This document shows, piece after piece, positions 74-20,369 of a DNA stretch of 25,173 nucleotides. Source of the DNA: a virus (lineage: Duplodnaviria > Caudoviricetes). Positions within the stretch are counted from its first letter, which is position 1. Each line of letters starts with the position of its first letter. Position numbers and translations under genes: made by a program. Location of the stretch: the IMG/VR virus record IMGVR_UViG_3300025114_000042, positions 1-25,173 of that record, one strand, 5' to 3'. The notes beneath the pieces are model-generated. The model was not told the origin of the DNA and ran no database searches. It was given only the letters and a program-made list of their open reading frames with translations.

Positions 74-2758
74 TTATAACCCGTATTTTGTTAGTAGGTG
101 ATTGCGGATAGTACCTGCTTCTGAATCCGTGAGTGCTGAGTCAAATACAATGATTTCCCACATAGCCCCCACATACTCATTATAGCTTGGAGTAGTTGGC
201 CCATCATACGAGGTAAAGAAGGTCGCAAAATCCCAATCATCTGATCCAACATTACCTGTGACACTAGCCAATCCAGAAACAATAAGTTTAGTTGTTGCAT
301 CCCCATTAAAGTGTTCAGAAACAACGTGCATATCAGTGTCATAAGCTGGGGTAATCTGGATCTCTGACCCACTACCCTGTCCAACACCAAACTCTCGGTT
401 CGGATTTGAGTTAATGCCTTTCCACCTAGCATCACTATCAGACCGAGCATCGTGTAAGAAATAAGCGTCGGAGACTGACCCTTCTGTGTACTTAAAGACC
501 ATGAACACAGTTCCGGGCGAACTTATAGTCTGCCCTGCTGTTGTCTCCAAACCTACGTCGTCATTCACATACACAGCCGCATAGTCAGTCGTATTGACAA
601 AAGCATCACCCTGTATAGTCCATGTCTCACCACCAGCACCGCTGCTTACCCATGTTGAGGTGTTGGCAGTAGCATCTGCTGGGTTGAAATCCAGTACTGG
701 CGTAGCCGTTGGGTCTGTACTGTTGAGCAAAACTACCCTGCCAAAATTCCCTGTAGCCTTGTTATCTGTACCGCTAGTATCTGAACCAATCTCAAACTCA
801 TGTGAGCTATCAACCAACGTGCCTACAACATGGGATATGTCGGCACTACCGAGTTGCGCCCATGATACGCTTGCTACCGCTGTTGTAGCAGCATCATCAC
901 TGGTATAGAAGTTGGTTGTGTTGGCTGAATTATCAAAAGTAACCCTTATCCAGTGACCTGTACCATTACTAAACCCTGTAGCAGATGTAGAATTGGAATA
1001 AACATAATCGGAACCAGTGGTTGATGTGGTTAGGGTTAGTTGGCCACCACTAATATAAAATCTATAACAACGATCAGAACTCCCTCCATACTTACCCGCA
1101 ACAACATAAGTTCCAGTATCCCAGACATCAAAAGAAGCATAAGCAATAATTGTGAACGCACTGGATACGCTGTTGTCGGCAGAGTCGGGAGTAGAAAAGT
1201 AGTTGCCCGAAGTGCTGTCCCTCCTAGCTGTATTGCTAGGCAACACAAACAAATTAGCCGCAGTCCCATTCACGGTATCCAGATCATAATCCGTACCGCC
1301 TGTGCCGCTGTTCGTCCACTCAGTTATGGGGAACGTGCCTACAATGTCAGCAGGAGTGTAGTGGGCCAGCGCAGTAGCAAGCAGGGTTTCAGCGTTAGCC
1401 AGCTCGTACTTGGTTTCAAGGTAGTCCTGTACCAGTGCTACATCGTCGTCACTCAGGGCTGAGTCGAACACGATGAACTCGTACATTGCGCCCGTTGTCG
1501 GCACAGTGTGAGCAGTATTGGAAAACAACGTACCCCAGTTTAAGTGGTATGCCCCTGCGTCCCCTGTCACACTACCCATACTGCTGTCTGTTAGTTTTGT
1601 AGTAGCATCCCCGTTATGTTGGATCGTAGTGATAGAAAGTGCGTTTTGGTATGGTTCAGCTAGATATATGTTTGATCCCGCGTACAGAGTAATCTTGTCT
1701 GGTGTTCCAGGCTCAGTGTTTACCCCTATACTAGCCGAGCCTGTTGACTTAGCGTTGAAATACACCTCAGTAGCACTGGGATCTGCAATTTTTTGTTTCA
1801 GTACCATGAATATAGTCATGGGATCAGCTATCGCTTGCTCCGTCGTTGTCTCTATACCAACCGATCCTTTAGCATACACAGCATCGTAGTCTGTCGTATT
1901 GACCACTGCATCGCCTTCAATTGTCCAGACCTCTGCGTTTGCGCCGCTGCTTGTCCATGTGTCGGCGTTGGGGGAAGCATCTGCTGGGTTACAATCCCAT
2001 GCGGGGGCTGCGGTTGGGTCAGTGCTTTTTATACCAACTACTCTGCCAAATTTCCCGCCCCATGTTGAGCCTCCATCCAATATGTCGCCTACCTGAATAT
2101 CGCCACTACTATCGTAAAGGCTTGTCTGTGTTATTGTTACTGACGTTCCTAGCTGAGTCCATGATACTGCGGTTGGTTCCGTATCTGCGGCATCGCCTGA
2201 CGTATAAAAATCTGCCGTATTTGCCGATATATCGTAAGTAACTCTAATCCAGTGCGCGGAACCATTAGCAAAACTGTAGCTTGCATTCGACGCGCCATCT
2301 GCAACGGTAGCGACCGTCCCATCACTAGTTGTAACTAGGTACAGCTTGTCTGCGCCTGACTCAGTAGCAAAAGCCCAACAAAATTCCCCTACGGAAGTGA
2401 ACTGCCCCGCAATGTATTGCCTACCTGTTGAACCCCAATCAGCCAGCGCACCATAACCGATAACTGTAAAGTCCCCTGTAAAACTGTTAGCGGCTGAGTC
2501 AGGCGTGGATAGGTAATCTGCGTATGTCACCTTCACCATGTGGCTCTCAAGCGTAATCAAATTAGCCGCTGTACCCACAACCGTATCAAGGTCGTAGGAT
2601 GCTCCACCCGTACCTGAGTTCGTCCACTCTGTGACGGGAAACGTGCCTACAATGTCGTCTGCCGTATATCGGGCAAGGGCTGTGGCTAGTAGTGTATCTA
2701 TAGGAGTGGTAGGTGTGCCGCCACCACCGAACCCAAGCATCTGATAACCAAAACTCAT
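74..2758 (-). CDS. Tail-associated receptor-binding protein with a tandem-duplicated LamG/concanavalin A-like module (894 aa)
   Basis: N-terminal MSFGYQMLGFGGGG anchor; Thr/Ser/Asp/Gly-rich beta composition. LamG-type C-terminal motif E-x-IVFDSALS/T...YL/HL-x-TKY occurs twice. TAATG-coupled to the tail fibre gene. Confidence 0.75.
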   Translation of the reverse strand: MSFGYQMLGFGGGGTPTTPIDTLLATALARYTADDIVGTFPVTEWTNSGTGGASYDLDTVVGTAANLITLESHMVKVTYADYLSTPDSAANSFTGDFTVIGYGALADWGSTGRQYIAGQFTSVGEFCWAFATESGADKLYLVTTSDGTVATVADGASNASYSFANGSAHWIRVTYDISANTADFYTSGDAADTEPTAVSWTQLGTSVTITQTSLYDSSGDIQVGDILDGGSTWGGKFGRVVGIKSTDPTAAPAWDCNPADASPNADTWTSSGANAEVWTIEGDAVVNTTDYDAVYAKGSVGIETTTEQAIADPMTIFMVLKQKIADPSATEVYFNAKSTGSASIGVNTEPGTPDKITLYAGSNIYLAEPYQNALSITTIQHNGDATTKLTDSSMGSVTGDAGAYHLNWGTLFSNTAHTVPTTGAMYEFIVFDSALSDDDVALVQDYLETKYELANAETLLATALAHYTPADIVGTFPITEWTNSGTGGTDYDLDTVNGTAANLFVLPSNTARRDSTSGNYFSTPDSADNSVSSAFTIIAYASFDVWDTGTYVVAGKYGGSSDRCYRFYISGGQLTLTTSTTGSDYVYSNSTSATGFSNGTGHWIRVTFDNSANTTNFYTSDDAATTAVASVSWAQLGSADISHVVGTLVDSSHEFEIGSDTSGTDNKATGNFGRVVLLNSTDPTATPVLDFNPADATANTSTWVSSGAGGETWTIQGDAFVNTTDYAAVYVNDDVGLETTAGQTISSPGTVFMVFKYTEGSVSDAYFLHDARSDSDARWKGINSNPNREFGVGQGSGSEIQITPAYDTDMHVVSEHFNGDATTKLIVSGLASVTGNVGSDDWDFATFFTSYDGPTTPSYNEYVGAMWEIIVFDSALTDSEAGTIRNHLLTKYGL

Positions 2759-4197
2759 TAGGCATCGTTCCCTGCGTCAGTGGTGAAAAACAGTTTTATC
2801 CCTATAAGCCTCGCGTCCTCCGCCATAGTATCGCTGCCGTTTGATACAGCCCTGAATATCCTGAAATAGCACATATCCTCAGCCGCTGGCGTACCGGCTA
2901 TGGTGATAGCGCCAGACTCGCCCGTTACAAGCATGTCATTTGCTGCCGAGATATTGTTGTCAATGACCACAACAGCAGTACCGTAGGTCGCGCCTATCGT
3001 GCCGTCGTTACTAACCGCTACACCTTGTAGACTCCATGCCACACCATCGGTATCAGTAGCCGTAGAAGTCCAGAAGGCTTGGAAGGCTACTGTGCCCTCA
3101 TTCCAGCTCTTTGGAAACGCCACTTGGAACTGTGCGTATTCGGCAGAAGTCCCGTCAAAGTCCAGCACGTTCATATCTGGTTGCCCAGCCCCTGTCGCAG
3201 CCTGTGCTATCGCCGCACAGCCGTTAGACACCGTGGGCAGCATAGCCGCTACTGGAACGAATATAGTTGATTTGCCTATGTTGCCGGATGCCAGCCCTGT
3301 ACAAGTGCCTGAGCTGCCGCTGGCGTTGCCTGTGACGTTGCCAGTTAGCGGCCCTGCAAAATTTGTAGCGGCTGTAATCACCCCGCCATCAATGGCGCTC
3401 GACCCGACATCGACAGCGCCAAAACCTGACGTAATCGAACCTGAGTCCAGCGCTCCTACAGTGACCAAATTGGCTGCACTCGTGATGGATGCTTGTGTTC
3501 CGCCTGTGACCGTTGCTGCGGTGCCACTGGCGTTACCTGTAACATTACCTGTTACGTTACCTGTAACATTGCCTGTAACATTACCTGTTACGTTGCCGGT
3601 CAAATTACCCGTGATCGTTCCACTTACTGTCAATGCCCCGTCAAACTGTACGTCACCACTATCGACCCATAATGCCCAGTTAGTAGCGCCTTCACTTGGC
3701 GCACCAGCTATGTACATGGTAGCCGCAGTTGTAACCGTTCCAGTGGCCGTGATATTCGGCTCAGTCAGATAAACAGCGGATACCAGGGCTGTAGTACCGG
3801 TGGGGATAGTGATTGCATTGCTGTTGAGCATTGCCAATCTATGCGTGTTTTCAGTAGCGTCAGCCGTGAATGCAGCAGGATCAATCGAGATAAACCCAGT
3901 GTTAGCAACCGACTGCCAGCCAATCTTGACTGCATCAACCGCCTTAACTTCAATGTCTATAACGTCGTCAGTATCCGCCGTGATCGAGGAATCCCCGTCA
4001 ACGTCGAGTATGATCTTGTTACCATTGCTGTCCTGTGTGCCTGTCCATACTGTCTGACCGTCCTTATCTATAGAGTTCGTGATTTCAGTCTCTATGTCAG
4101 TCATGGTGTTGTTATGCACCGTTGAGCTAATGGTTGTACCTGTTACGACAGGATTACCGGCTGGAAGCGTGTACGTACCTGCGCCGTCCCTAGAGAT
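2758..4197 (-). CDS. Tail fibre protein (479 aa if started at ATC 4197; the ORF track's GTG at 4119 is probably internal)
   Basis: The open frame upstream of 4119 encodes (I)SRDGAGTYTLPAGNPVVTGTTISSTVHNNTMTDI, the typical M-S/P-RNGSGTYTLP...GTTISS podovirus fibre N-terminus. It has GNVT repeats and a C-terminal beta domain (LDFD...AQF...PKSWNEGT). SD GGGAGGG lies 7 nt before the ATC. Confidence 0.85.
   Translation of the reverse strand: MSRDGAGTYTLPAGNPVVTGTTISSTVHNNTMTDIETEITNSIDKDGQTVWTGTQDSNGNKIILDVDGDSSITADTDDVIDIEVKAVDAVKIGWQSVANTGFISIDPAAFTADATENTHRLAMLNSNAITIPTGTTALVSAVYLTEPNITATGTVTTAATMYIAGAPSEGATNWALWVDSGDVQFDGALTVSGTITGNLTGNVTGNVTGNVTGNVTGNVTGNASGTAATVTGGTQASITSAANLVTVGALDSGSITSGFGAVDVGSSAIDGGVITAATNFAGPLTGNVTGNASGSSGTCTGLASGNIGKSTIFVPVAAMLPTVSNGCAAIAQAATGAGQPDMNVLDFDGTSAEYAQFQVAFPKSWNEGTVAFQAFWTSTATDTDGVAWSLQGVAVSNDGTIGATYGTAVVVIDNNISAANDMLVTGESGAITIAGTPAAEDMCYFRIFRAVSNGSDTMAEDARLIGIKLFFTTDAGNDA
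3532..3612 (-). repeat. Degenerate 12-bp coding tandem repeat (TGNV/TGNL x ~6-7) in the tail fibre shaft
   Basis: TITGNLTGNVTGNVTGNVTGNVTGNVTGNASG; unit resembles ttacctgtaaca on the + strand. Confidence 0.9.
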
Positions 4198-7585: not shown

Positions 7586-10501
7586 TTACTTGAAAAGTCC
7601 CTTGAATCCACCTTGATTTGCACCTGCCGCCCCCAATGCTGCTCCGCCAAGGCCAAATAATCCGCCCATTAAATCACTTGGGTTATAGGTGTCGGCCTGA
7701 TAATTACCTTGTGCCTGTGCTGCGTTGAATATCGGTGGTGGAGCTACCTGTGCGCCACTGTACTGCTGGAACTGCGGTAATTGAGCCTGAGTACCAGTTC
7801 TAAGCGCGTTTATTTCATTAAGCGGTAAGTTACGGAGATATGCCTGTTCCTGTATCTGACGTTGACGTTCCTGCGCTTGTTGCTGCTGGAAGGACTGATT
7901 ATTCATGAACTGACGTTGTTGTTCTTGGCTCATATTCTGGAACACGCGCTGATCTTCACTCGTCATGTTCTGGAACATTCTCTGTGCTTCGGCAGCGTCA
8001 TAACTTGCAACTTCCGCCCTCTCGCCAAACTGCTGGCTACGGACAGCGTTCTGCATTTGCGCCTGAACCTGCTGTTCGCTCAATCCCTGCGCTCTCAACT
8101 GTTGCTGGAACTGGGCTAAGGATTCCTGCTCACCGAACTGTTGTCCACGTTGAGCCTGTGCGTCAGTGGCAATAGCGCCACGTTCAGCGAACTGCCCCTG
8201 CCTTGCGGCATTCTGCATTTGCGCTTGAACTTGTTGCTCGTTCAGCCCCTGAGACCTCAACTGTTGTTGGAACTGAGCCATTGCTTCTTGTTGACCAAAC
8301 TGCTGCTGATTTATAGCCATATTGACTTGGGCCTGAACCTGTTGTTCGTTCAATCCAGCGGCTCTTAGCTGCTCTTGGAATTGAGCCAGAGTAGTCTCTT
8401 CGCCAAACTGCTGCGCTCTCTGCGCTTGTGCGTCTGCCGAAATAGCCTGTCTTTCGCCAAACTGTTGACCACGAATCGCCATGTCCATTTGGGCTTGAAC
8501 TTCCTGTTCATTCAGTCCTTGAGCGCGTAATTGCTGGGCAAACTGAGCCATAGATTCTTGTTCGCCAAATTCCTGCCCTCTCTGACCAGCATAAGCGTCA
8601 GTGATCGTTGCTCGTTCCCCGAACTGCTGACCACGGATTGCGTTATTAATCTGAGTTTGAATTTGTTGCTCACTCAACCCCTGCCCTCTAAGCTGTTGAG
8701 CAAACTGCCCTATCGCTTGACGTTCAGAGAATTCCTGCCCACGCATACCCATTTGTGACGCAGTTTGAGCCTGTTGCTCAGTCAATCCTTGTGATCTACG
8801 GGCGTTCTCAAGTCCAGCGATACGGCTTTGTTCCTGACCACCGGCTAAAATAGCTTGGGTGTTAAAATCATTCTGCTGCCGGTTGATCTCGTCCATACGC
8901 TCGTTATAGCCTTCAGTCCCCGGTGTAAAGCCTCTGGCAATCAGATCAGCTTCCATATCAGAGCGTTGCTTGGCGAACAATGGGTCTTGTCTTGCTTTCA
9001 TTGCGTCAGTGATCTGATTCAATCCACCTACTGAGGGATCAATCTGATAATCACGTAACCTGCTGGGATCGACCTGGTTTACGCCGGCCATACCATAATT
9101 ATTCAACTGACCTTGTGGCGAAAGTTGATTTACGTCAATTTCCTGAAATCCCTGCAATCCACCCTGACTCAATCTACTGAAATCGCTCAAATCCTGATTA
9201 CGCAGTTGTCCTTGAGGAGATAATTGACCGAGGTTTATATCGGCAACGCCCTGCAATTCTTGATTGTTGAGGGCAGAGAAATCCCGTAATCCAGAGGTAT
9301 CTATGTTCCCTCGTTCCGCTAATTGCGACAGGTCTATGCCGGTCATTTGCTGCAACTGGCTGGTATCTATGTTGCCCTGTTGCGGTAATTGGTTGGGGTC
9401 AATCGAACCATATCCGCCCAATCCTTGTGCAGATAGTTGGTCAAAACCTCTCATTCCGCCAGTGTCTATGCTGCCCTGTTGAGCAAGTTGGTTAAGGTCG
9501 ATATTCCCGTACTGCCCTAATCCAGCGGTATTCAGTCCACTTCTGTCGCCAACAATGTTCTGATTGGGGGGTGGAGCGCCTTTTTTACTGCCAGCACCGC
9601 CGGTATACATGCCACCTGGATTTATACCGCCACTGTCATATCCACCGTCGCCTTGATTAAATCCGCCGCCAGCACCAGGGAACCACGGCTGAATACCTAC
9701 CTGACCCCCACCGGAACCGTAATTGGAGCCAATCGGAGTTTGGCCGTATCCCGTAATGCTGGAGGTCTGGTTGGTAACTGGGTCAACACCCTGCATTCCC
9801 GACGTATCGAATGAAGTGCCGAGCATTCTATTAATGTCGTCAAGCCCTGTAGTAGCAGTTTGTAACAGACCAATATCTAACCCTTGGCCGAGATCGAACT
9901 TTTGTTGCTCAGTAGGCGAGAATGTCTGCGTTACCGTGGCTTGCGGGATTCCTGCTGTGCCGTATCCACCACCGTATCCACCGCCGTATCCACCGTATCC
10001 ACTGCCTCCGCTGGTAGCACCAGTGTATCCACCGCCATAAACACCACTGGTGTTAATCCCGCCGTACTGTCCACCGCCGTATTGACCGCCACCACCGAGC
10101 GCCCAGCCACCGGTAGAATCACTCCCACCAGTAGGCGACCAAGTCCACGGATTCTGCCCTTGTGCGGTTAATCCAGCCTCAAACCCCGGAGTATAGCCAA
10201 ATCCCTTACGCTGCCCTTCTTCCAGATAATGCCCGTAAGCAGTCAAGTTGGGGTCTGATTCCATTGCTTCAGCAACGTCAGGACGCTTGGCTAGATATGC
10301 AGCGGAGTCAAATTGCCCTTGACCACCAAAACCACCGCCTGTGCCTTGTCGCCCCCATGTTGTTGTCTGGGTGCCATACGGGGTGACGACATTCGGGTTG
10401 GACAGGACGGTAGTTTGGTACGCTGCCCGTTCATTGGCTGCGCCCTGTTCTTTAGCCGCCCCCGAATAATCGGGTGCTGGAGGGGCCGATTTTTTGCCCA
10501 T
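7586..10501 (-). CDS. DNA ejection/pilot protein (P22 gp7-like position), greatly expanded by repeats (971 aa)
   Basis: N-terminus MGKKSAPPAPDY...NVVTPYG, central L-x-ARGFTPGTEGY core, RNLPLNEINAL motif and C-terminal GGLFGLGGAALGA are typical of the first ejection protein after the GNAT-like gene. AGGAG SD. Confidence 0.75.
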   Translation of the reverse strand: MGKKSAPPAPDYSGAAKEQGAANERAAYQTTVLSNPNVVTPYGTQTTTWGRQGTGGGFGGQGQFDSAAYLAKRPDVAEAMESDPNLTAYGHYLEEGQRKGFGYTPGFEAGLTAQGQNPWTWSPTGGSDSTGGWALGGGGQYGGGQYGGINTSGVYGGGYTGATSGGSGYGGYGGGYGGGYGTAGIPQATVTQTFSPTEQQKFDLGQGLDIGLLQTATTGLDDINRMLGTSFDTSGMQGVDPVTNQTSSITGYGQTPIGSNYGSGGGQVGIQPWFPGAGGGFNQGDGGYDSGGINPGGMYTGGAGSKKGAPPPNQNIVGDRSGLNTAGLGQYGNIDLNQLAQQGSIDTGGMRGFDQLSAQGLGGYGSIDPNQLPQQGNIDTSQLQQMTGIDLSQLAERGNIDTSGLRDFSALNNQELQGVADINLGQLSPQGQLRNQDLSDFSRLSQGGLQGFQEIDVNQLSPQGQLNNYGMAGVNQVDPSRLRDYQIDPSVGGLNQITDAMKARQDPLFAKQRSDMEADLIARGFTPGTEGYNERMDEINRQQNDFNTQAILAGGQEQSRIAGLENARRSQGLTEQQAQTASQMGMRGQEFSERQAIGQFAQQLRGQGLSEQQIQTQINNAIRGQQFGERATITDAYAGQRGQEFGEQESMAQFAQQLRAQGLNEQEVQAQMDMAIRGQQFGERQAISADAQAQRAQQFGEETTLAQFQEQLRAAGLNEQQVQAQVNMAINQQQFGQQEAMAQFQQQLRSQGLNEQQVQAQMQNAARQGQFAERGAIATDAQAQRGQQFGEQESLAQFQQQLRAQGLSEQQVQAQMQNAVRSQQFGERAEVASYDAAEAQRMFQNMTSEDQRVFQNMSQEQQRQFMNNQSFQQQQAQERQRQIQEQAYLRNLPLNEINALRTGTQAQLPQFQQYSGAQVAPPPIFNAAQAQGNYQADTYNPSDLMGGLFGLGGAALGAAGANQGGFKGLFK
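7991..8800 (-). repeat. 15 x 18-aa (54-bp) Gln-rich helical repeat, residues 568-837
   Basis: Units such as LRAQGLNEQEVQAQMDMA / IRGQQFGERQAISADAQA / QRAQQFGEETTLAQFQEQ in exact 18-residue register. Confidence 0.92.
9044..9538 (-). repeat. 15 x 11-aa (33-bp) repeat, residues 322-486
   Basis: Units such as NIDLNQLAQQG / SIDTGGMRGFD / QLSAQGLGGYG in exact 11-residue register. Confidence 0.88.
9960..10100 (-). repeat. Gly/Tyr-rich low-complexity repeat (GGGQYGGGQYG...GYGGYGGGYGGGYG)
   Basis: 9-12-bp ccgtatccaccg-type units on the + strand. Confidence 0.85.
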
Positions 10502-10512
10502 TTATGAAACTC

Positions 10513-10935
10513 CTATGCCGCATTCCTATTGAAATACTTGCACTTGTCTTTTGTCATTTCGGTGAGAACGTAATCTACACCAACCTTAAAACCGTCTTGA
10601 ATTTTACCAATCTCATAAAAACCAATGTTCTTGATAAACTTCAGTGCCTTTTGGTTGTCAGAAGGCGTGATTCCGATGATTTTCGTCCTACCTGATTCCT
10701 CACTGAAGGCAAACTTAAAGACCTCCTCTGCGAAACCATGACGCAAAACAAACGGGTTTCCTATCCATATATGAATAATACAGCTATTATACGACCAACT
10801 ATCGAAAACGCATACTGCTTCCGGTATTCCTTCGTTGTTTAATGCCGTTATTCCTCTCGTATCCTCGCATAAATTCGGTCTTGCCTCGCCCATATAGTCC
10901 AAATGCACGCGCTCTAATGGCACAAAACTAACCAA
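10513..10935 (-). CDS. GNAT-fold virion assembly protein (P22 gp14 / DUF2824-like), 140 aa
   Basis: GNAT C-terminal motif TPSDNQKALKFIKNIGFYEIG; located between the nozzle and the ejection proteins. Confidence 0.75.
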   Translation of the reverse strand: MVSFVPLERVHLDYMGEARPNLCEDTRGITALNNEGIPEAVCVFDSWSYNSCIIHIWIGNPFVLRHGFAEEVFKFAFSEESGRTKIIGITPSDNQKALKFIKNIGFYEIGKIQDGFKVGVDYVLTEMTKDKCKYFNRNAA

Positions 10936-12499
10936 TTACTCCTCCATATTCGTATAAATAGTCAGAAGCGGTATATCTTACGTCCAATCCATTACTAATG
11001 GTACTCAACTGTAATGCGATGGCTGTCCCTACTGCATTAACGGTCTGCCAATCATTGAACGAACTCACATCACCGCCCCATGTCGCCCCGTCCCATAGTG
11101 CTGCGTCCCACAAACCATGTGGGGAGGGGGTAAAAGTCAGTGCTGCTTGCCCCTGTACGTCGTCGCCAAAATCAACAGCAACACCCATATAAACTGCTGG
11201 AGTACCATTGGACAAGAAGTTGGGTCTGACAGAATTAACCTGCTTCAACCGGCCCTTTGCCCCTAAATAAGTGAATGCCTGTTTTAACTGCGCGTCTATG
11301 TTCAGACCTTTATCAGCGAATAACTCACCAAAATGACCCACAACACCGTCACCGCCAAAGTACATTTTCTCATTCGATATTGCCCAGCAATTAGCCTCGA
11401 TCTCGGTAAATCGCCACCACGCACCATTCAGCGTGTTCATGACGTACTGCTCCTGCTTCGATCCCTCACTAACCGGCACATTAACCAATACCTGATTACC
11501 CTGCGGGAAGAAGGTCATATTCCAGCCATAATTACTGCGGTAATTAACACTTGCGTCAGTAAATGCCGTTGAAATCATGTCGGTCAAGGCAACCTGTGGG
11601 TTAGTCTGCGAGGACTGTAGCGCCCCAGATAGCGGAAATACCCCTTGAACTGTAAGGGTTAGTATGTCGCCAGCGTACTTAATCAAGCACCTTGAGCCTA
11701 TCGGTTCGCCAATGTTCCAGATACCAATCAACCCCCATGAGTTCGTGGAGGAAGGATTTGTACCTTTGAACACAGCTACTTGGCCTTCACTGGAGACAAC
11801 GACCAAATGATCGTCTGAGCCTTCACCAGCGTCTAATGTCCATGTCTCGGCGGCAACCAAATACCCACCTTTGGAGAAATAGCCGTCTAATCGAGTTCTA
11901 GCCGTCGCTCCACCAACCGAATCAACCGGCAGGTAATAGAGCGAGAGCGAGTTGTTCAATATGAGATACATACGCCGCTTGAATATCGTGGCATTTACAA
12001 TATCAGTGGTAGTTACCCCCGTAATAGCAGGGGTAGAAGCGTCGGTAATCGTTATCCAGTTGGAATTATCCCAGTATCTCGGTGCGTCAGTACCGTTAAA
12101 GCAGCATAAATAGGAGTTTCCAGCGGAATTGGTGAAATTAACGTACTGCCAACGGGCATTCGTCAATGATCCAACAACAGCAGCACCAACGGCTCCAGCA
12201 CTTGTGACATTGTAAAACGAGTCATTTGCCGCAGCAAAGAGGGTCTGTGTACCATCCTGCGCGTTATACGGCATTAAGGACTCAACTTGCTGCCCTATGC
12301 CCGTTACATGCTCCGAATAGCCCTTGCGAACCCTTACGTCAGTGGTATTGCCGAACCAATTATCAGTTTCAGCGGCATAACCCTCCTTCATATCAGCAAG
12401 GGAATCTTTGGCGTTCCAGCCTTTGACCGGTGCGGAAACAGAGTGAGTGCGGGAAATCTCACGCCCTCTGGCTCTCTTGCGGAAAGCGGGGGTTCTCAT
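10928..12499 (-). CDS. Tail nozzle / DNA stabilisation protein (P22 gp10 / T7 gp12-like), 523 aa
   Basis: N-terminal APVKGWNAKD...NWF...VRVRKG, beta-propeller-like composition, C-terminal WDAALWDGATW; follows the adaptor. Confidence 0.8.
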   Translation of the reverse strand: MRTPAFRKRARGREISRTHSVSAPVKGWNAKDSLADMKEGYAAETDNWFGNTTDVRVRKGYSEHVTGIGQQVESLMPYNAQDGTQTLFAAANDSFYNVTSAGAVGAAVVGSLTNARWQYVNFTNSAGNSYLCCFNGTDAPRYWDNSNWITITDASTPAITGVTTTDIVNATIFKRRMYLILNNSLSLYYLPVDSVGGATARTRLDGYFSKGGYLVAAETWTLDAGEGSDDHLVVVSSEGQVAVFKGTNPSSTNSWGLIGIWNIGEPIGSRCLIKYAGDILTLTVQGVFPLSGALQSSQTNPQVALTDMISTAFTDASVNYRSNYGWNMTFFPQGNQVLVNVPVSEGSKQEQYVMNTLNGAWWRFTEIEANCWAISNEKMYFGGDGVVGHFGELFADKGLNIDAQLKQAFTYLGAKGRLKQVNSVRPNFLSNGTPAVYMGVAVDFGDDVQGQAALTFTPSPHGLWDAALWDGATWGGDVSSFNDWQTVNAVGTAIALQLSTISNGLDVRYTASDYLYEYGGVIG

Positions 12500-13212
12500 A
12501 AATCCCAGCTGCCAATCGGGATAATCACGCCAGCTTGACGGTAATCTCTATCTCTGGACTCAAGACTTAACATTGGCTTGGAACCGTCACGGGCCATTGC
12601 GTCCATAACTCTACGCTCATAAGTCGCAAAATCCTCTGCATATTCCAAACCCTTCGTTTTCAACCAGCGCCAGCGTAGACCAAGACCCATAAGGTTTTCG
12701 TCCAGCAATCCGGTATCGCTATCGGCTGCCCATGCCGCCTGACCTGTGCCACCTGAACTCTGACACCAGGAAGTAGAGGCATAGGAAAAACCCATTGTCT
12801 CGCCAGCAGTCGGGGTGGGGGCAATATAGAAATTACCCTCACGTTCCTGCCACTGTTGGTAAGGGCCGGTCACTGGGGAGGCTTGGAGTGTTTGCCACTC
12901 CATATCATTCAGAGGGCCAGTTATCGGTAATGAGGTGGTGCGGTTCCAGATCGAATCATTGATAAAGTGGTCGAAATCACCGTCACTGACCACTGTCCCG
13001 TCGATTGCACCCTGATTAGCAGTACCGACAATCGTGAAGGTCGTATCTCTAACCTGCGCCCTCCAATGGCAACGAGTTTCTAAGTCCTCGCCTTCCTCGT
13101 CGGCTAACGCCAAAAGTTGAATTATTTGTACGTCAGTATTACCGACAACCAAGTTGGGGACGGCTATGCCAACCCTACGGGAAACCTTTTGAACCATTGT
13201 TAATAAGGACAT
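12496..13212 (-). CDS. Head-to-tail adaptor (P22 gp4 / T7 gp11-like), 238 aa
   Basis: MSLLTMVQ start, LDENLMGLGLRWRWLKTKGLEYAE motif, and position in the operon. Confidence 0.78.
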   Translation of the reverse strand: MSLLTMVQKVSRRVGIAVPNLVVGNTDVQIIQLLALADEEGEDLETRCHWRAQVRDTTFTIVGTANQGAIDGTVVSDGDFDHFINDSIWNRTTSLPITGPLNDMEWQTLQASPVTGPYQQWQEREGNFYIAPTPTAGETMGFSYASTSWCQSSGGTGQAAWAADSDTGLLDENLMGLGLRWRWLKTKGLEYAEDFATYERRVMDAMARDGSKPMLSLESRDRDYRQAGVIIPIGSWDL

Positions 13213-15671: not shown

Positions 15672-16772
15672 TTATGACCGCGCCTTAATTTCTGCCATAG
15701 TCTCGGCCATAGTGTCGTCAACGCTTCCAGTGGGGGTTGGCTGTCTAACGCTGTGGGAGCCACTACGCTCAAGATTGTTATCCAGAGCCTTCTTAGCCTT
15801 TTCCACATGCGCTGTTGCTTGATCCTGACGTTTGGCTGAATCTGAGTGAGCCTGTTCGCTCATCAAAATCGGCCTGATCTTAGGATTCGCCCATATTTCG
15901 CGTTCATAAGCGGTTTCGAGGTCTATCCCCTCCGCTTCTACAATGGAAGCCATCTGCTGCCTTACGTTTTCAAAGTAAGGATGCTTCAGGGTTCCATCCG
16001 TATTCACTGCGGTTTCAAACTGATGTACTTCATTAACGACTAATTGCTCGGTCGCCTGTTGTCGCGCTGCCGCCAATCGCTCATTTACAGTCCGATCCAC
16101 AGTCCGATCCACGTCCTGTTGGGTTAAACCTTGGGACTGAACCGATTGTCGATTGGTATATAATGCCACCATTTCGTTGACAACGCCATACTGTTTTGCT
16201 GTTTCCCACAATTGCTGCGCTTTTTGCTGCGGTGCGGCAGTCTCTAAGACGTAATAAGCGTTCAACATTGTGCCGATCGCTTCCGTCGGATTACTGCCTC
16301 TGGCGTTGATTGTGGGCATATAAGGGGCTACAACGGAGTTTATCTGGCGTCCGTAATTAGCGTCCTCTTTGAGCATTTCCACACCACGCATGGAATCCTG
16401 CTCTCGTTTGTGTATTTCAGCCCTATGCGTCGGAGAAAGTTCATTCCATGTCGATTTGGCTAATGCACGCCAGGTACTCGGTGGATTCACATATTCTTTA
16501 ATTTCATTGCCGTCGTCGTCAAGTAGATTCTCAGCAACTACGATTTCAGGCTGTTCTACGCCCTCGGATTCTGGGTCTTTCTCGGCAAACTGGCCTTTTT
16601 CATCACGGGCTGGCCCTTCATCTGCCGGTGCCTCCTCGCTCGGCGTTTCCTCGCTCGGCGTTTCCTCGCTCGGCGTTTCCGCTTCAACTTCCTCAATTTC
16701 CTCCGCTTCTGAGGCTCTGATTTCACTCAGCGTTTCCTCCATTGACTCGTCGAGGGTTTGTACTTCAGACAT
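15672..16772 (-). CDS. Capsid scaffolding protein (366 aa)
   Basis: Acidic N-terminus, RDEKGQFA, PPSTW and HPYFENVR motifs, helical; immediately upstream of the capsid gene. Confidence 0.82.
   Translation of the reverse strand: MSEVQTLDESMEETLSEIRASEAEEIEEVEAETPSEETPSEETPSEEAPADEGPARDEKGQFAEKDPESEGVEQPEIVVAENLLDDDGNEIKEYVNPPSTWRALAKSTWNELSPTHRAEIHKREQDSMRGVEMLKEDANYGRQINSVVAPYMPTINARGSNPTEAIGTMLNAYYVLETAAPQQKAQQLWETAKQYGVVNEMVALYTNRQSVQSQGLTQQDVDRTVDRTVNERLAAARQQATEQLVVNEVHQFETAVNTDGTLKHPYFENVRQQMASIVEAEGIDLETAYEREIWANPKIRPILMSEQAHSDSAKRQDQATAHVEKAKKALDNNLERSGSHSVRQPTPTGSVDDTMAETMAEIKARS
16633..16680 (-). repeat. Perfect 15-bp tandem repeat x3 (ETPSE) in the scaffold N-terminus
   Basis: tcctcgctcggcgtt x3 on the + strand. 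Confidence 0.95.
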
Positions 16773-18307: not shown

Positions 18308-20369
18308 TTCCTGCGCTCCTTAATGGTTGTGCCTGTAGTTTACGCATTTCAAACTGAAACTTTGCCTTATCAGACTCCATTTTCATTTGAATTTCAGCCA
18401 TAGTCGCTTGGTGATCAGCTTTCGACTGCTGCATTTCCATTTGCATTTTCTGCATATCCATTTGCATTTCAGCCTGTTTAGCCTGACCTTCAACCTGTAG
18501 CTTCTGCATATTGGCTTGCATTTCAGCTTGCTTCATTTGTTGATCAGCTTGCTGCTTTTGCTGTTCGGCTTGTTGTTTCTGCTGTTCAGCTTGCTCCTCT
18601 GGCTTAGGCTCTGGTGGGCCTTCCTCCATCATGGCGTCCTCAACCTCACGCCCCAGCTTGAACTTACGCATAACCGAAACGAGGAATTTCTTGGCCGCAG
18701 GTTTAGTCATTACACCCTGCTCAACCATTGGCTGTAGTCCCTGTGTTAGCGGCCCTACACCCTGCATTAACTGGGTCAATGCCTCCTGATTAGCGGTTTG
18801 ATCAGCCTGAATCGTTGAATCAGTCTCAATATCTATGCGGTAGGCTCTGAGAACGTCGTTACCCATAACCGCTTTCAATTCCTCCCACGTTGGCTTACTC
18901 AGCATTTCCATAAGCTCTGCGGGCGGTTGAGGGGGTTGTTGTGGCTGTTGTCCCTGCTGCTTCATGGCTTCAAGCTGCATTTGAGCTTGCTGCTTTTCCT
19001 GCTGGGTTGGATACCTCAGGCCGGTCATTTTCATGAGCGTTTCAGGTGAGAAGTTCTCACCAATAATCTCAACCGTCATTCTGATTAAGTCTCTAGCATA
19101 TCGCTGAATCTCGCGCTGTCGATCCTGAAGCCTCTGTGAGCCAAAATTAGCCTTAATCTGCTGTGCGCCCAGTGTTTCATTAGGATTGGATTGGCCACGA
19201 ATAATGTCCGAAATGCCTGTCAATTCGTATATTTGAGTGATTGTGTCAGTACGATACTGTCTTAGCTGTAAAAGCACTTCAGCCAGCGTTGTTATAGGCA
19301 GCATCCAGATTGCTTTGTCTATACCGCCTTTTTCGATCAGTCTGGACAGGTTTACAGCCGGAATCATGTCGTTATCAGTGGCGCTAAACAGTTTATCCAT
19401 TTCGGCCATAGTCGAGTCGTATATACCACGGACTCTGAGCGCCTTGGTAATGCGCGACATTCGGTTGGTAACGTCCTCAAGATTGTTCGCCAATGTCTCA
19501 TACTGGGAGAAATCGGTGATAGGAACCATTGAGGTTGTTGATTCAATCGAATAACAGGGTTTGGGTATCGGCCAGAAATCTTGCAGATTCAGGGGGTCAT
19601 CAGCCACCTTGATAAAGTCGTCCTTGAAGGAATCGGCCAGCCATAGGACTTGATTTCCGTCCTTATCCCATATTTCCCAGACTTTCGCCCGTTTGAATAC
19701 TCGGGCTTCCTCGTTCTTTTCTTTCTCGGACTTGCCCTCTGCAACGTCATAATTGAGCTTATCGGCAAATTCGGGGGATAATTTCTTAATCTGGGCCTTC
19801 TTGAGCATGTGTTCAAAGGCTATCCACGGAATTTCCTCCCACGTATCACCTGGCCCTAAGAGTATTTCGTCCCACTGAACCGGTGAATAACCTACTTCCT
19901 CATTGACAACTTCCTCATGTTCTTCGCCGTCCTCACCAAGCACCATTTTGGTTGTCGGGAGGTATTTGATTCTGGTCACGCCCCTACCGGCAAGCAGCAT
20001 GTCTTGAGTAGCGCCTATCATGCGCGGGTGGAATTTAGAGGCTTCCAAGGTAAATGAACAGGCACGTTCCAGTATTTCAGAAACGTGTTTGCCTATAGGG
20101 TCGGCGTCCTTAAACCGTCTGCGTATGTCAGGGCGGGGAACTGTTGAATACAGTGCGGGTCTAATCGTTTCCACATTCGACCATAGGATATTAAACGTAT
20201 CCTTCTTTTTGTGGTCAGTATTGCCTACACGCCTGTCATTGCGGTAGGTTTTGTTGGCAACTTCAGCCTCAGCTATCCACTCTTTATCCCGTTTCAGGGC
20301 AAGCTCAATTTCCTTACTCCAGCGAGATGCGTCGGTATCGTCACTTTTCTCGATCATTTCGTCAGCCAT
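18300..20369 (-). CDS. Portal protein (689 aa) with Gln/Met-rich C-terminal barrel coiled coil
   Basis: FNILWSNVETIRPALYS, IYELTGISDIIRG...ETLGAQQIKANFGS and YRIDIETDSTI motifs of P22-like portals; downstream of TerL. Confidence 0.92.
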   Translation of the reverse strand: MADEMIEKSDDTDASRWSKEIELALKRDKEWIAEAEVANKTYRNDRRVGNTDHKKKDTFNILWSNVETIRPALYSTVPRPDIRRRFKDADPIGKHVSEILERACSFTLEASKFHPRMIGATQDMLLAGRGVTRIKYLPTTKMVLGEDGEEHEEVVNEEVGYSPVQWDEILLGPGDTWEEIPWIAFEHMLKKAQIKKLSPEFADKLNYDVAEGKSEKEKNEEARVFKRAKVWEIWDKDGNQVLWLADSFKDDFIKVADDPLNLQDFWPIPKPCYSIESTTSMVPITDFSQYETLANNLEDVTNRMSRITKALRVRGIYDSTMAEMDKLFSATDNDMIPAVNLSRLIEKGGIDKAIWMLPITTLAEVLLQLRQYRTDTITQIYELTGISDIIRGQSNPNETLGAQQIKANFGSQRLQDRQREIQRYARDLIRMTVEIIGENFSPETLMKMTGLRYPTQQEKQQAQMQLEAMKQQGQQPQQPPQPPAELMEMLSKPTWEELKAVMGNDVLRAYRIDIETDSTIQADQTANQEALTQLMQGVGPLTQGLQPMVEQGVMTKPAAKKFLVSVMRKFKLGREVEDAMMEEGPPEPKPEEQAEQQKQQAEQQKQQADQQMKQAEMQANMQKLQVEGQAKQAEMQMDMQKMQMEMQQSKADHQATMAEIQMKMESDKAKFQFEMRKLQAQPLRSAGNG

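Follow-up and report, generated by a model that had tools for sequence, protein, structure and literature searches.

The window analysed here, 25,173 nucleotides of the linear virus record IMGVR_UViG_3300025114_000042 (Duplodnaviria; Caudoviricetes), holds a podophage-type gene set in which a 971-residue protein, occupying the slot of an ejection protein, carries two tandem-repeat arrays of mutually unrelated sequence that run in mirrored order on either side of a short core. Across relatives, the two repeat-bearing arms co-vary in length, and the 11-residue units of array I predict the type of the 18-residue units at the mirror positions of array II. These observations suggest that the chain folds back, packing every 10–11-residue unit in antiparallel direction against a single 18-residue helical unit, and we consider it probable that copies of such a hairpin form an extracellular DNA tube leading from the tail nozzle to the host membrane. 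In this proposal, the contact between the arrays, the oligomeric state and the function are inferred, in part by analogy.

Identity autocorrelation of the protein peaks at lags of 11, 22, 33 and 55 residues in array I and of 18, 36 and 54 residues in array II, in agreement with the 15 units of 11 residues and 15 units of 18 residues that an earlier note on this DNA had placed at the residues listed in Table 1. The mirrored unit order described in that note also withstands both permutation and a stricter control. Specifically, the unit-similarity matrices of the two arrays correlate with a Mantel r of 0.58 in mirror order (p=1.5e-4; 20,000 permutations) and of 0.21 in parallel order (p=0.036); the corresponding values are 0.46 and 0.22 at the DNA level, and 0.72 and 0.41 in the best unit phase. 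Because free permutation flatters periodic arrays, circular shifts and foreign array IIs were added as controls. Among 30 combinations of circular shift and orientation, the mirror without shift scores highest (0.55; runner-up 0.43). When each of 16 array Is was compared with its own array II and with those of 15 relatives, the own partner came top in 11 cases, with a mean r of 0.50 for own arrays versus 0.02 for foreign ones. In two-class clustering, mirror partners agree at 14 of the 15 units, the skipped unit 10 included; the finer three-class split of the earlier note (L/T versus B/C) is visible by eye, but clustering in the phase used there did not recover it.

Several trivial explanations for the arrays were rejected. 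An assembly artefact is contradicted by the lack of long exact runs at unit lags (none of at least 40 bases in the identical gene L092) and by gene copies, identical or 94% identical, in L002–L005. Coupling at the DNA level by direct or inverted repeats between the arrays was rejected as well, since array I does not resemble array II at the DNA level in direct, inverted or reversed orientation, nor at the protein level. Matches of array II to Pfam cwf21, DUF1967 and TIGR03595, with no stretch passing or below the cut-off, are read as composition artefacts. Taken together, these results confirm that the mirror-ordered twin arrays are real and beyond chance, and the lack of similarity between them makes it likely that their coupling acts through selection on the protein.

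The sample of relatives comprised the 120 listed of 145 matches, 6 shorter proteins and 66 distinct proteins from 80 viral loci; all four anchors of the two arms could be placed in 134 of 191 distinct proteins, and the other 57 were dropped. Across these 134 proteins, the lengths of the N-arm and the C-arm correlate with a rho of 0.92 and a slope of 0.587, equivalent to 10.6 residues per 18, compared with rho values of 0.27 and −0.16 for control regions outside the hairpin. Independent phylogenetic contrasts give an r of 0.69 with concordant signs in 96 of 109 cases (controls, 52/92 and 51/99). Of 52 disjoint close pairs, 6 differ in the N-arm alone and 46 have C-arms of unequal length; in these 46, the N-arm changes in the same direction in 42, not at all in 1 and in the opposite direction in 3, with a ratio of 0.50–0.67 in 35. 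In a held-out set of 87 loci, all anchors could be placed in 52 proteins; for the 39 that had not been sampled before, rho is 0.997, and 33 fall within 4 residues of the earlier line, these 33 being short forms. The co-expansion claimed in the earlier note is therefore borne out, although a few relatives are unmatched.

The periodicity extends through the family as well. Period 18 is present in 109 of 111 proteins with long C-arms; in the N-arms of these 111, 40 have a period of 10, 36 a period of 11 and 35 no clear period. C-arm lengths step by 7 and 11 in 131/134. With the register fixed from the 971-residue protein alone and near-duplicates included, mirror order scores above parallel order in 59 of 70 proteins, with p<0.05 in 46. 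Family lengths range from ~270 to 1221 residues, more than fourfold, corresponding to 0 to ~85 nm of added helix. Very long forms of ~30 units include P0111 (a Sulfitobacter mediterraneus record; C-arm of 586 residues) and L077:5245-7947 (496 residues).

Deviations from the family line are skewed towards the N-arm, with residuals above +20 (surplus N-arm) in 16/134 proteins and below −20 in 2/134. The 971-residue protein itself has an N-arm residual of +65, and its Gly-rich N-arm insert is 38 residues longer in L004, with the arrays unchanged. Selection on the protein would keep the arms matched, and since a surplus in the non-helical arm is tolerated, a stepwise, N-arm-first route to each new unit pair is possible.

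Paired duplication is captured in close relatives. L095 has 17/17 units, the added ones being type-matched at mirror positions, and P0033 shows near-exact duplications of 20 and 36 residues. In L100, an exact 3 × 99 bp tandem in array I accompanies an exact 3 × 162 bp tandem in array II at the cognate units, in a locus 99.7–99.9% identical to assemblies with 1/1 or 2/1 copies. Reads mapped on L096 place both repeat contigs at raised depth, ~1.5 to 4 times the flanks, in 4/4 runs. Short contigs across the repeat junction accompany the 162-bp repeat in all 4 runs and the 99-bp repeat in at least 3. Three of the four runs may themselves have gone into the assemblies, and the noise in depth precludes exact copy counts. 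L006/L007/L097/L098 (16/13 units) had been considered as a one-sided intermediate, which was dropped because the 162-bp repeat is multi-copy in the reads too. Since both repeats are multi-copy, the 2/1 mismatch is likely an assembly collapse, as are L006/L007/L097/L098 and the 13/13 forms L096/P0004, and the unit count of P0004 may be too low in the comparative analyses.

For the pairing rule, 23 proteins were parsed into units, a false first unit was removed by rule, and 16 in-phase proteins were kept; the 7 dropped were near-duplicates, out-of-phase proteins or the L006 case. The 11-mer predicts whether the core position of the mirror 18-mer is Phe or Leu/Met/Val with an area under the curve (AUC) of 0.93 (153 pairs; trained on other proteins), compared with 0.51–0.58 in parallel order. 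In particular, Gly at position 5 of the 11-mer faces Phe units in 60 of 84 cases and Leu/Met/Val units in 14 of 69, and this large–small complement suggests contact between the two units. An alternative is that array I is a mere tether, spanning the same distance as array II without residue-level contact, the mirror order being a by-product of duplication history or DNA-level copying. Paired duplications alone would indeed yield mirrored similarity, long inserts are tolerated in the N-arm, and pooled mutual information, which we set aside because it is confounded by kinship, is high at every register and could not separate them. However, the type rule is constant across proteins with differing unit orders, the slope stays near 10–11 per 18, the arrays share no DNA similarity in any orientation, and a tether has no need for duplication at the cognate position, as seen in L095 and L100. 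We consider this alternative very improbable.

AlphaFold2 monomers were predicted for the 971-residue protein and the mid-length relative L034, with alignments of 36 and 94 sequences. The former has a confident core hairpin (predicted local distance difference test, pLDDT, in the 90s), an N-terminal module and a helical array II. The 81-residue core that the earlier note had recognised between the arrays is thus present, as a conserved helix-turn-helix, and array II contains its 15 units of 18, but its helix runs on past unit 15 into two 11-residue units. The L034 model is alike, with a confident non-helical stretch in the distal N-arm and array I repeats at pLDDT 40–52. A helix rises 1.5 Å per residue, so that 18 residues span 27 Å and the partner unit would have to cover 2.5–2.7 Å per residue, as an extended chain with turns. 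The helical wheel of the 18-mer shows two hydrophobic faces ~160–200° apart in both subfamilies, with second harmonics of hydrophobicity exceeding the first (1.73 vs 0.58; 1.38 vs 0.47). Array II contains 28% Q and 7% R and steps by 7 and 11, a Q/R/N-rich arc lies between the hydrophobic faces, and Arg and Glu are near-invariant in the 11-mer subfamily. By analogy with the phiX174 H tube, such a two-faced helix would fit ring packing around an amide-lined lumen, and it would equally fit an arrangement in which one face meets other helices and the other meets array I. In structural comparisons, Foldseek of the 971-residue model against the PDB gave no match at E<=0.001, sequence searches of the PDB gave nothing significant, and VIA-align of the L034 model returned generic helical hairpins only (best Z 8.2), the T7 chains 7ey7_A (Z 7.2, root-mean-square deviation 4.1, 92 aligned) and 8e4g_a (Z 7.1, 6.5, 105 aligned) being tied with unrelated hairpins and non-significant.

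The main rival keeps the same antiparallel pairing but makes the molecule a trimer, with array II as a three-helix coiled coil and three array I chains outside, forming a solid needle, plug or membrane-probing stalk. S74 chaperone domains form trimers. Many relatives carry a Peptidase_S74 chaperone after the hydrophobic segment (an S74-type C-terminal tail in 95/169 relatives, and in 6/14 short members by Pfam), C-arm steps of 7 and 11 are those of coiled coils, and the nozzle-slot gene is followed by the GNAT gene with no gene for a needle in between. On the other hand, the helix has two opposite hydrophobic faces, not one, and the gene slot and the label of the phiGT1 homologue are those of IVPB/gene 7. 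The domain is also dispensable: the 971-residue protein lacks it (its gene end, 7586-7670, encodes none), whereas L004 (L004:2841-6002), 94% identical over the arrays, ends in one, and gain or loss of S74 is evidently recent and frequent in the family. We therefore regard the trimeric solid stalk as unlikely. S74-bearing members are named ‘tail fiber domain-containing protein’ in databases, likely a misannotation.

Alignments place the 971-residue protein in the phiGT1 gp17/phrog_6121 (IVPB/gene 7) family, as its long-repeat form. It matches the phrog_6121 virion structural protein profile (E 1e-15), as do 14/14 short family members; Sulfitobacter phage phiGT1 gp17 aligns to the family alignment (hhalign 99.95%, E 2.6e-38) and shares the N-terminal module, the core hairpin, the C-anchor and the gene slot. 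With 342 residues and neither array, gp17 is a zero-repeat member. It is listed in virion mass spectrometry as ‘IVPB/gene7’ with 45 spectral counts (PMC10386132 supplement), where its expected copy number of 12 is the authors’ expectation rather than a measurement (PMC10386132). Virion presence is thus reported for the family member gp17 only, and the 971-residue protein is a presumptive virion and ejected protein by homology. Podophages of Brucella, Rhizobium and Sulfitobacter carry relatives of this family. Coverage of a 530-residue mid-length member stayed below 80% in all 59 phage records compared, and cultured relatives appear to be short forms.

The analogy that guides the tube proposal comes from two systems. 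P22 gp7* is described as a dodecamer whose monomer folds back, wedging residues 90–126 into the gp10 hub and sending its C-terminal helices into the outer membrane, so that a gap of ~6 nm is bridged by a tube lined and stabilised by the gp20 N-terminus; gp7* is disordered in the virion (bioRxiv 10.64898/2026.09.03.749273). For Ar-KM gp41, a hairpin is described that lines the nozzle and points its two termini outward (bioRxiv 10.64898/2026.05.18.726046). The 971-residue protein likely works like gp7*. After ejection, its core hairpin would dock in the tail nozzle, the array II helices, nearly straight with five turns in 18 residues (27 Å), would pack side by side as a ring of ~6–12, array I would zip back along the outside of the tube at ~2.5 Å per residue, and the N-terminal module and the hydrophobic C-end would meet at the outer membrane. 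Each unit pair would add ~2.7 nm, hence ~40 nm for 15 pairs, and the next two ejection proteins would prolong the channel once both ends reach the host membrane. Co-lengthening of these two genes with the arrays was rejected (gp20-slot gene, rho 0.08, n=51 loci; next gene, 0.11, n=41); with a gp20-slot gene of unrelated length, the 971-residue protein would have to form the added stretch alone, unlike in P22.

In this light, co-varying arms and unit-for-unit mirror matching support the fold-back reading of the earlier note, but its placement of the parts needs revision. The core at the stalk tip is likely wrong: since the hairpin turn binds the hub or nozzle in gp7* and gp41 and the ends face the outer membrane, the core would sit at the phage end. 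By the same analogy, the stalk would bridge extracellular space instead of spanning the envelope, and nothing was found in support of a spring.

Pairing may also be real yet transient, with array I a built-in chaperone that covers array II in the capsid or during nozzle passage, after which only total length counts. Ejection proteins do refold on exit, as gp41 does, and array I is low-confidence coil in both models. But P22 gp7* is described as disordered in the virion, and in ejected gp7* and gp41 the two hairpin ends are both found at the membrane, a final state that requires the N-arm to return alongside the C-arm. We judge this storage or folding role improbable.

Several observations weigh against the tube of paired units. 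Array I repeats stay below a pLDDT of ~50 in both monomers, neither of which shows array pairing, and the frequent S74 chaperones point to a trimer rather than a ring of 6–12. The gp20 N-terminus lines and stabilises the P22 gp7 tube, yet the gp20-slot gene here keeps its length as the arrays grow. Comparisons with P22 gp7 revealed no homology in sequence (hhalign E 0.078; PF25688 unmatched in the genome). Additionally, registers adjacent to the mirror are predictive too (AUC 0.83 at shift −1 and 0.67 on the other side), the 16 proteins being related. Among relatives, apart from the three close pairs that change in opposite directions, P0100 has +18 in the C-arm only and P0113 has an N-arm 90 residues shorter than P0115 at equal C-arm, as judged from their protein sequences.

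Table 1. Features of the 971-residue protein and its neighbouring genes in the window (aa, amino acids; ORF, open reading frame).
Feature	Position	Strand	Basis
IVPB/gene 7-slot ejection protein, long-repeat form, 971 aa	7586..10501	-	ORF; phrog_6121; alignment to phiGT1 gp17
Conserved N-terminal module, aa 1-50, helix + beta-hairpin	10352..10501	-	AlphaFold2 pLDDT 72-92; conserved in alignments
N-arm anchor, aa 185-236, strand + helix ending at FD motif	9794..9949	-	Family alignment; AlphaFold2
Gly-rich surplus N-arm insert, aa 237-321, without C-arm partner	9539..9793	-	Varies among close relatives
Array I, 15 × 11 aa, predicted non-helical, putative outer antiparallel strand	9044..9538 (residues 322-486)	-	Repeats; AlphaFold2
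Conserved core helical hairpin, G-x-x-P-G turn, 81 aa, putative nozzle-docking end	8801..9043	-	Family anchor; pLDDT 90s; gp7*/gp41 analogy
Array II, Q/R/E-rich, 15 × 18 aa (7+11), predicted to be one continuous helix with two hydrophobic faces	7991..8800 (residues 568-837)	-	Putative tube wall, ~40 nm
Two extra 11-residue helical units after array II	7910..7975	-	Translation
Conserved C-arm anchor helix, QEQAYLR.LPLNEINALR motif	7790..7870	-	Family alignments
Gly-rich hydrophobic C-terminal segment, candidate outer-membrane anchor	7622..7672	-	Most hydrophobic 17-mer of the protein
GNAT-like gene, P22 gp14/T7 IVPA slot	10513..10935	-	phrog_4470 E 1.6e-13; identical slot in phiGT1
Tail nozzle/hub-slot protein (tubeB, P22 gp10 slot), 523 aa, putative docking partner	10928..12499	-	phrog_5107 E 2e-112; size, synteny
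Tail adaptor (tubeA)	12496..13212	-	PF24175, phrog_6013
Second ejection protein (P22 gp20 slot), 443 aa	6102..7433	-	phrog_2534 E 4.7e-9
Third ejection protein (P22 gp16 slot), 605 aa	4285..6102	-	Synteny only; slot as phiGT1 gp19

The operon runs terminase, portal, major head, adaptor, nozzle-slot protein, GNAT-like gene, 971-residue protein, 443-residue protein and 605-residue protein, and the order from the adaptor to the two further ejection genes is common to MW202489 and phiGT1; P22 has genes 14, 7, 20 and 16. The nozzle identity of the 523-residue protein rests on its size and its synteny with MW202489 and phiGT1, whose tail nozzle (tubeB) it fits in size and position, and the ‘amidase’ label of phrog_5107 is likely wrong for it. 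The phrog_2534 label matched by the gp20-slot protein reads ‘released from the phage upon host infection’; direct BLASTP of this protein with P22 gp20 gave no significant match. Profile scans of Pfam, PHROG and NCBIfam found no family for the gp16-slot protein. The hydrophobic C-terminal segment occurs at the same sequence position in 148/169 relatives.

The GNAT gene directly precedes the ejection gene in most loci, and 84/169 family proteins begin with MGK (start of the gene here, 10490-10501), several others carrying an N-terminal extension ahead of this motif that we liken to the cleaved leader of P22 gp7; that the GNAT protein acylates the N-terminus of the ejection protein is a guess. 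A small module, YLA..PDVA...HY...G..EG, with no NCBIfam match, lies in the N-terminal linker of the 971-residue protein (window 10199-10312, minus strand) and of L004. In P0001, P0004 and P0011 it is found instead within the N-arm, immediately ahead of array I, and in L099 it is absent, a distribution that looks like that of a mobile domain looped out of the chain. Elsewhere on the minus strand, two proteins without family matches are likely receptor-binding parts, namely an 894-residue protein with a ~430-residue internal duplication (74-2758) and a 453-residue fibre-like protein with GNVT tetrapeptide repeats (2758-4119; 12-bp tandem at 3533-3609). Short exact tandem repeats also occur in the scaffold-slot gene (16633-16680; 15 bp × 3.2) and near the portal C-terminus (18430-18595; 21 bp).

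More broadly, we see roughly even chances that this widespread podophage lineage has a deployable tail of tunable length, a tape-measure-free strand-on-helix tube of 0 to ~30 modules of 2.7 nm (at most ~85 nm), in which a code of Gly and Phe types sets the register and paired duplications retune reach within one phage population. If the tube model is true, a single gene would let short-tailed phages adjust how far they reach through surface layers, and the limits on podophage reach would become open to experiment through changes in the number of unit pairs in a cultured member that has none. The arrays also provide a clean natural example of co-evolution within one molecule, in which unrelated repeats are duplicated in pairs, with L095 and L100 as snapshots, and a candidate modular scaffold for protein nanotubes. 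The openly licensed PMC and bioRxiv literature, bioRxiv supplements excepted, yielded no description of mirror-matched arrays in such proteins.

Proteins of the gp14/gp7 slot, the gp14-like proteins, are described in a review as the most size-constant ejection proteins, with <30% variation (PMC8954989), whereas sizes in the phrog_6121 family differ by a factor of more than four, with the steps at one locus matched by those at the other. The 971-residue protein resembles P22 gp7* in its slot after a gp14-type acetyltransferase, its proposed fold-back with a hub-bound turn and its hydrophobic C-end, and gp7* forms an extracellular channel of the kind proposed here. However, gp7* has 229 residues, both arms helical, a ~6 nm span, a gp20 lining and no repeats in the description cited; proteins of the gp7/gp14 type have ~200 residues with both arms helical, in contrast to 971 residues and an N-arm predicted to be non-helical. 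As a lead only, 2/30 ESM Atlas matches fall in clusters with 22% PF25688 (score 0.92). T7 gp14 and Ar-KM gp41 also have a helical hairpin, which sits in the nozzle and directs its two termini at the host, but are hexamers of the 181–240-residue class, compared with ~270–1221 residues here.

The phiX174 H DNA pilot tube is described as helical, with 7- and 11-residue periods and amide and guanidinium side chains (PMC7354561). Array II, a 7/11-periodic helix rich in Q, N and R, is like it in a functional sense rather than by membership; general profile scans gave no H-type PHROG or Pfam match, and the comparison is by description. H is a microvirus protein with one helical layer and no returning strand. 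In chemoreceptors (methyl-accepting chemotaxis proteins, MCP), indels are symmetric between the two arms of the hairpin, which is the nearest known principle. These hairpin proteins fall into discrete length classes, the heptad classes (PMC7534058). Whereas both chemoreceptor arms are helical and change by equal indels, the 971-residue protein pairs unequal units, 10–11 residues against 18, of unrelated sequence.

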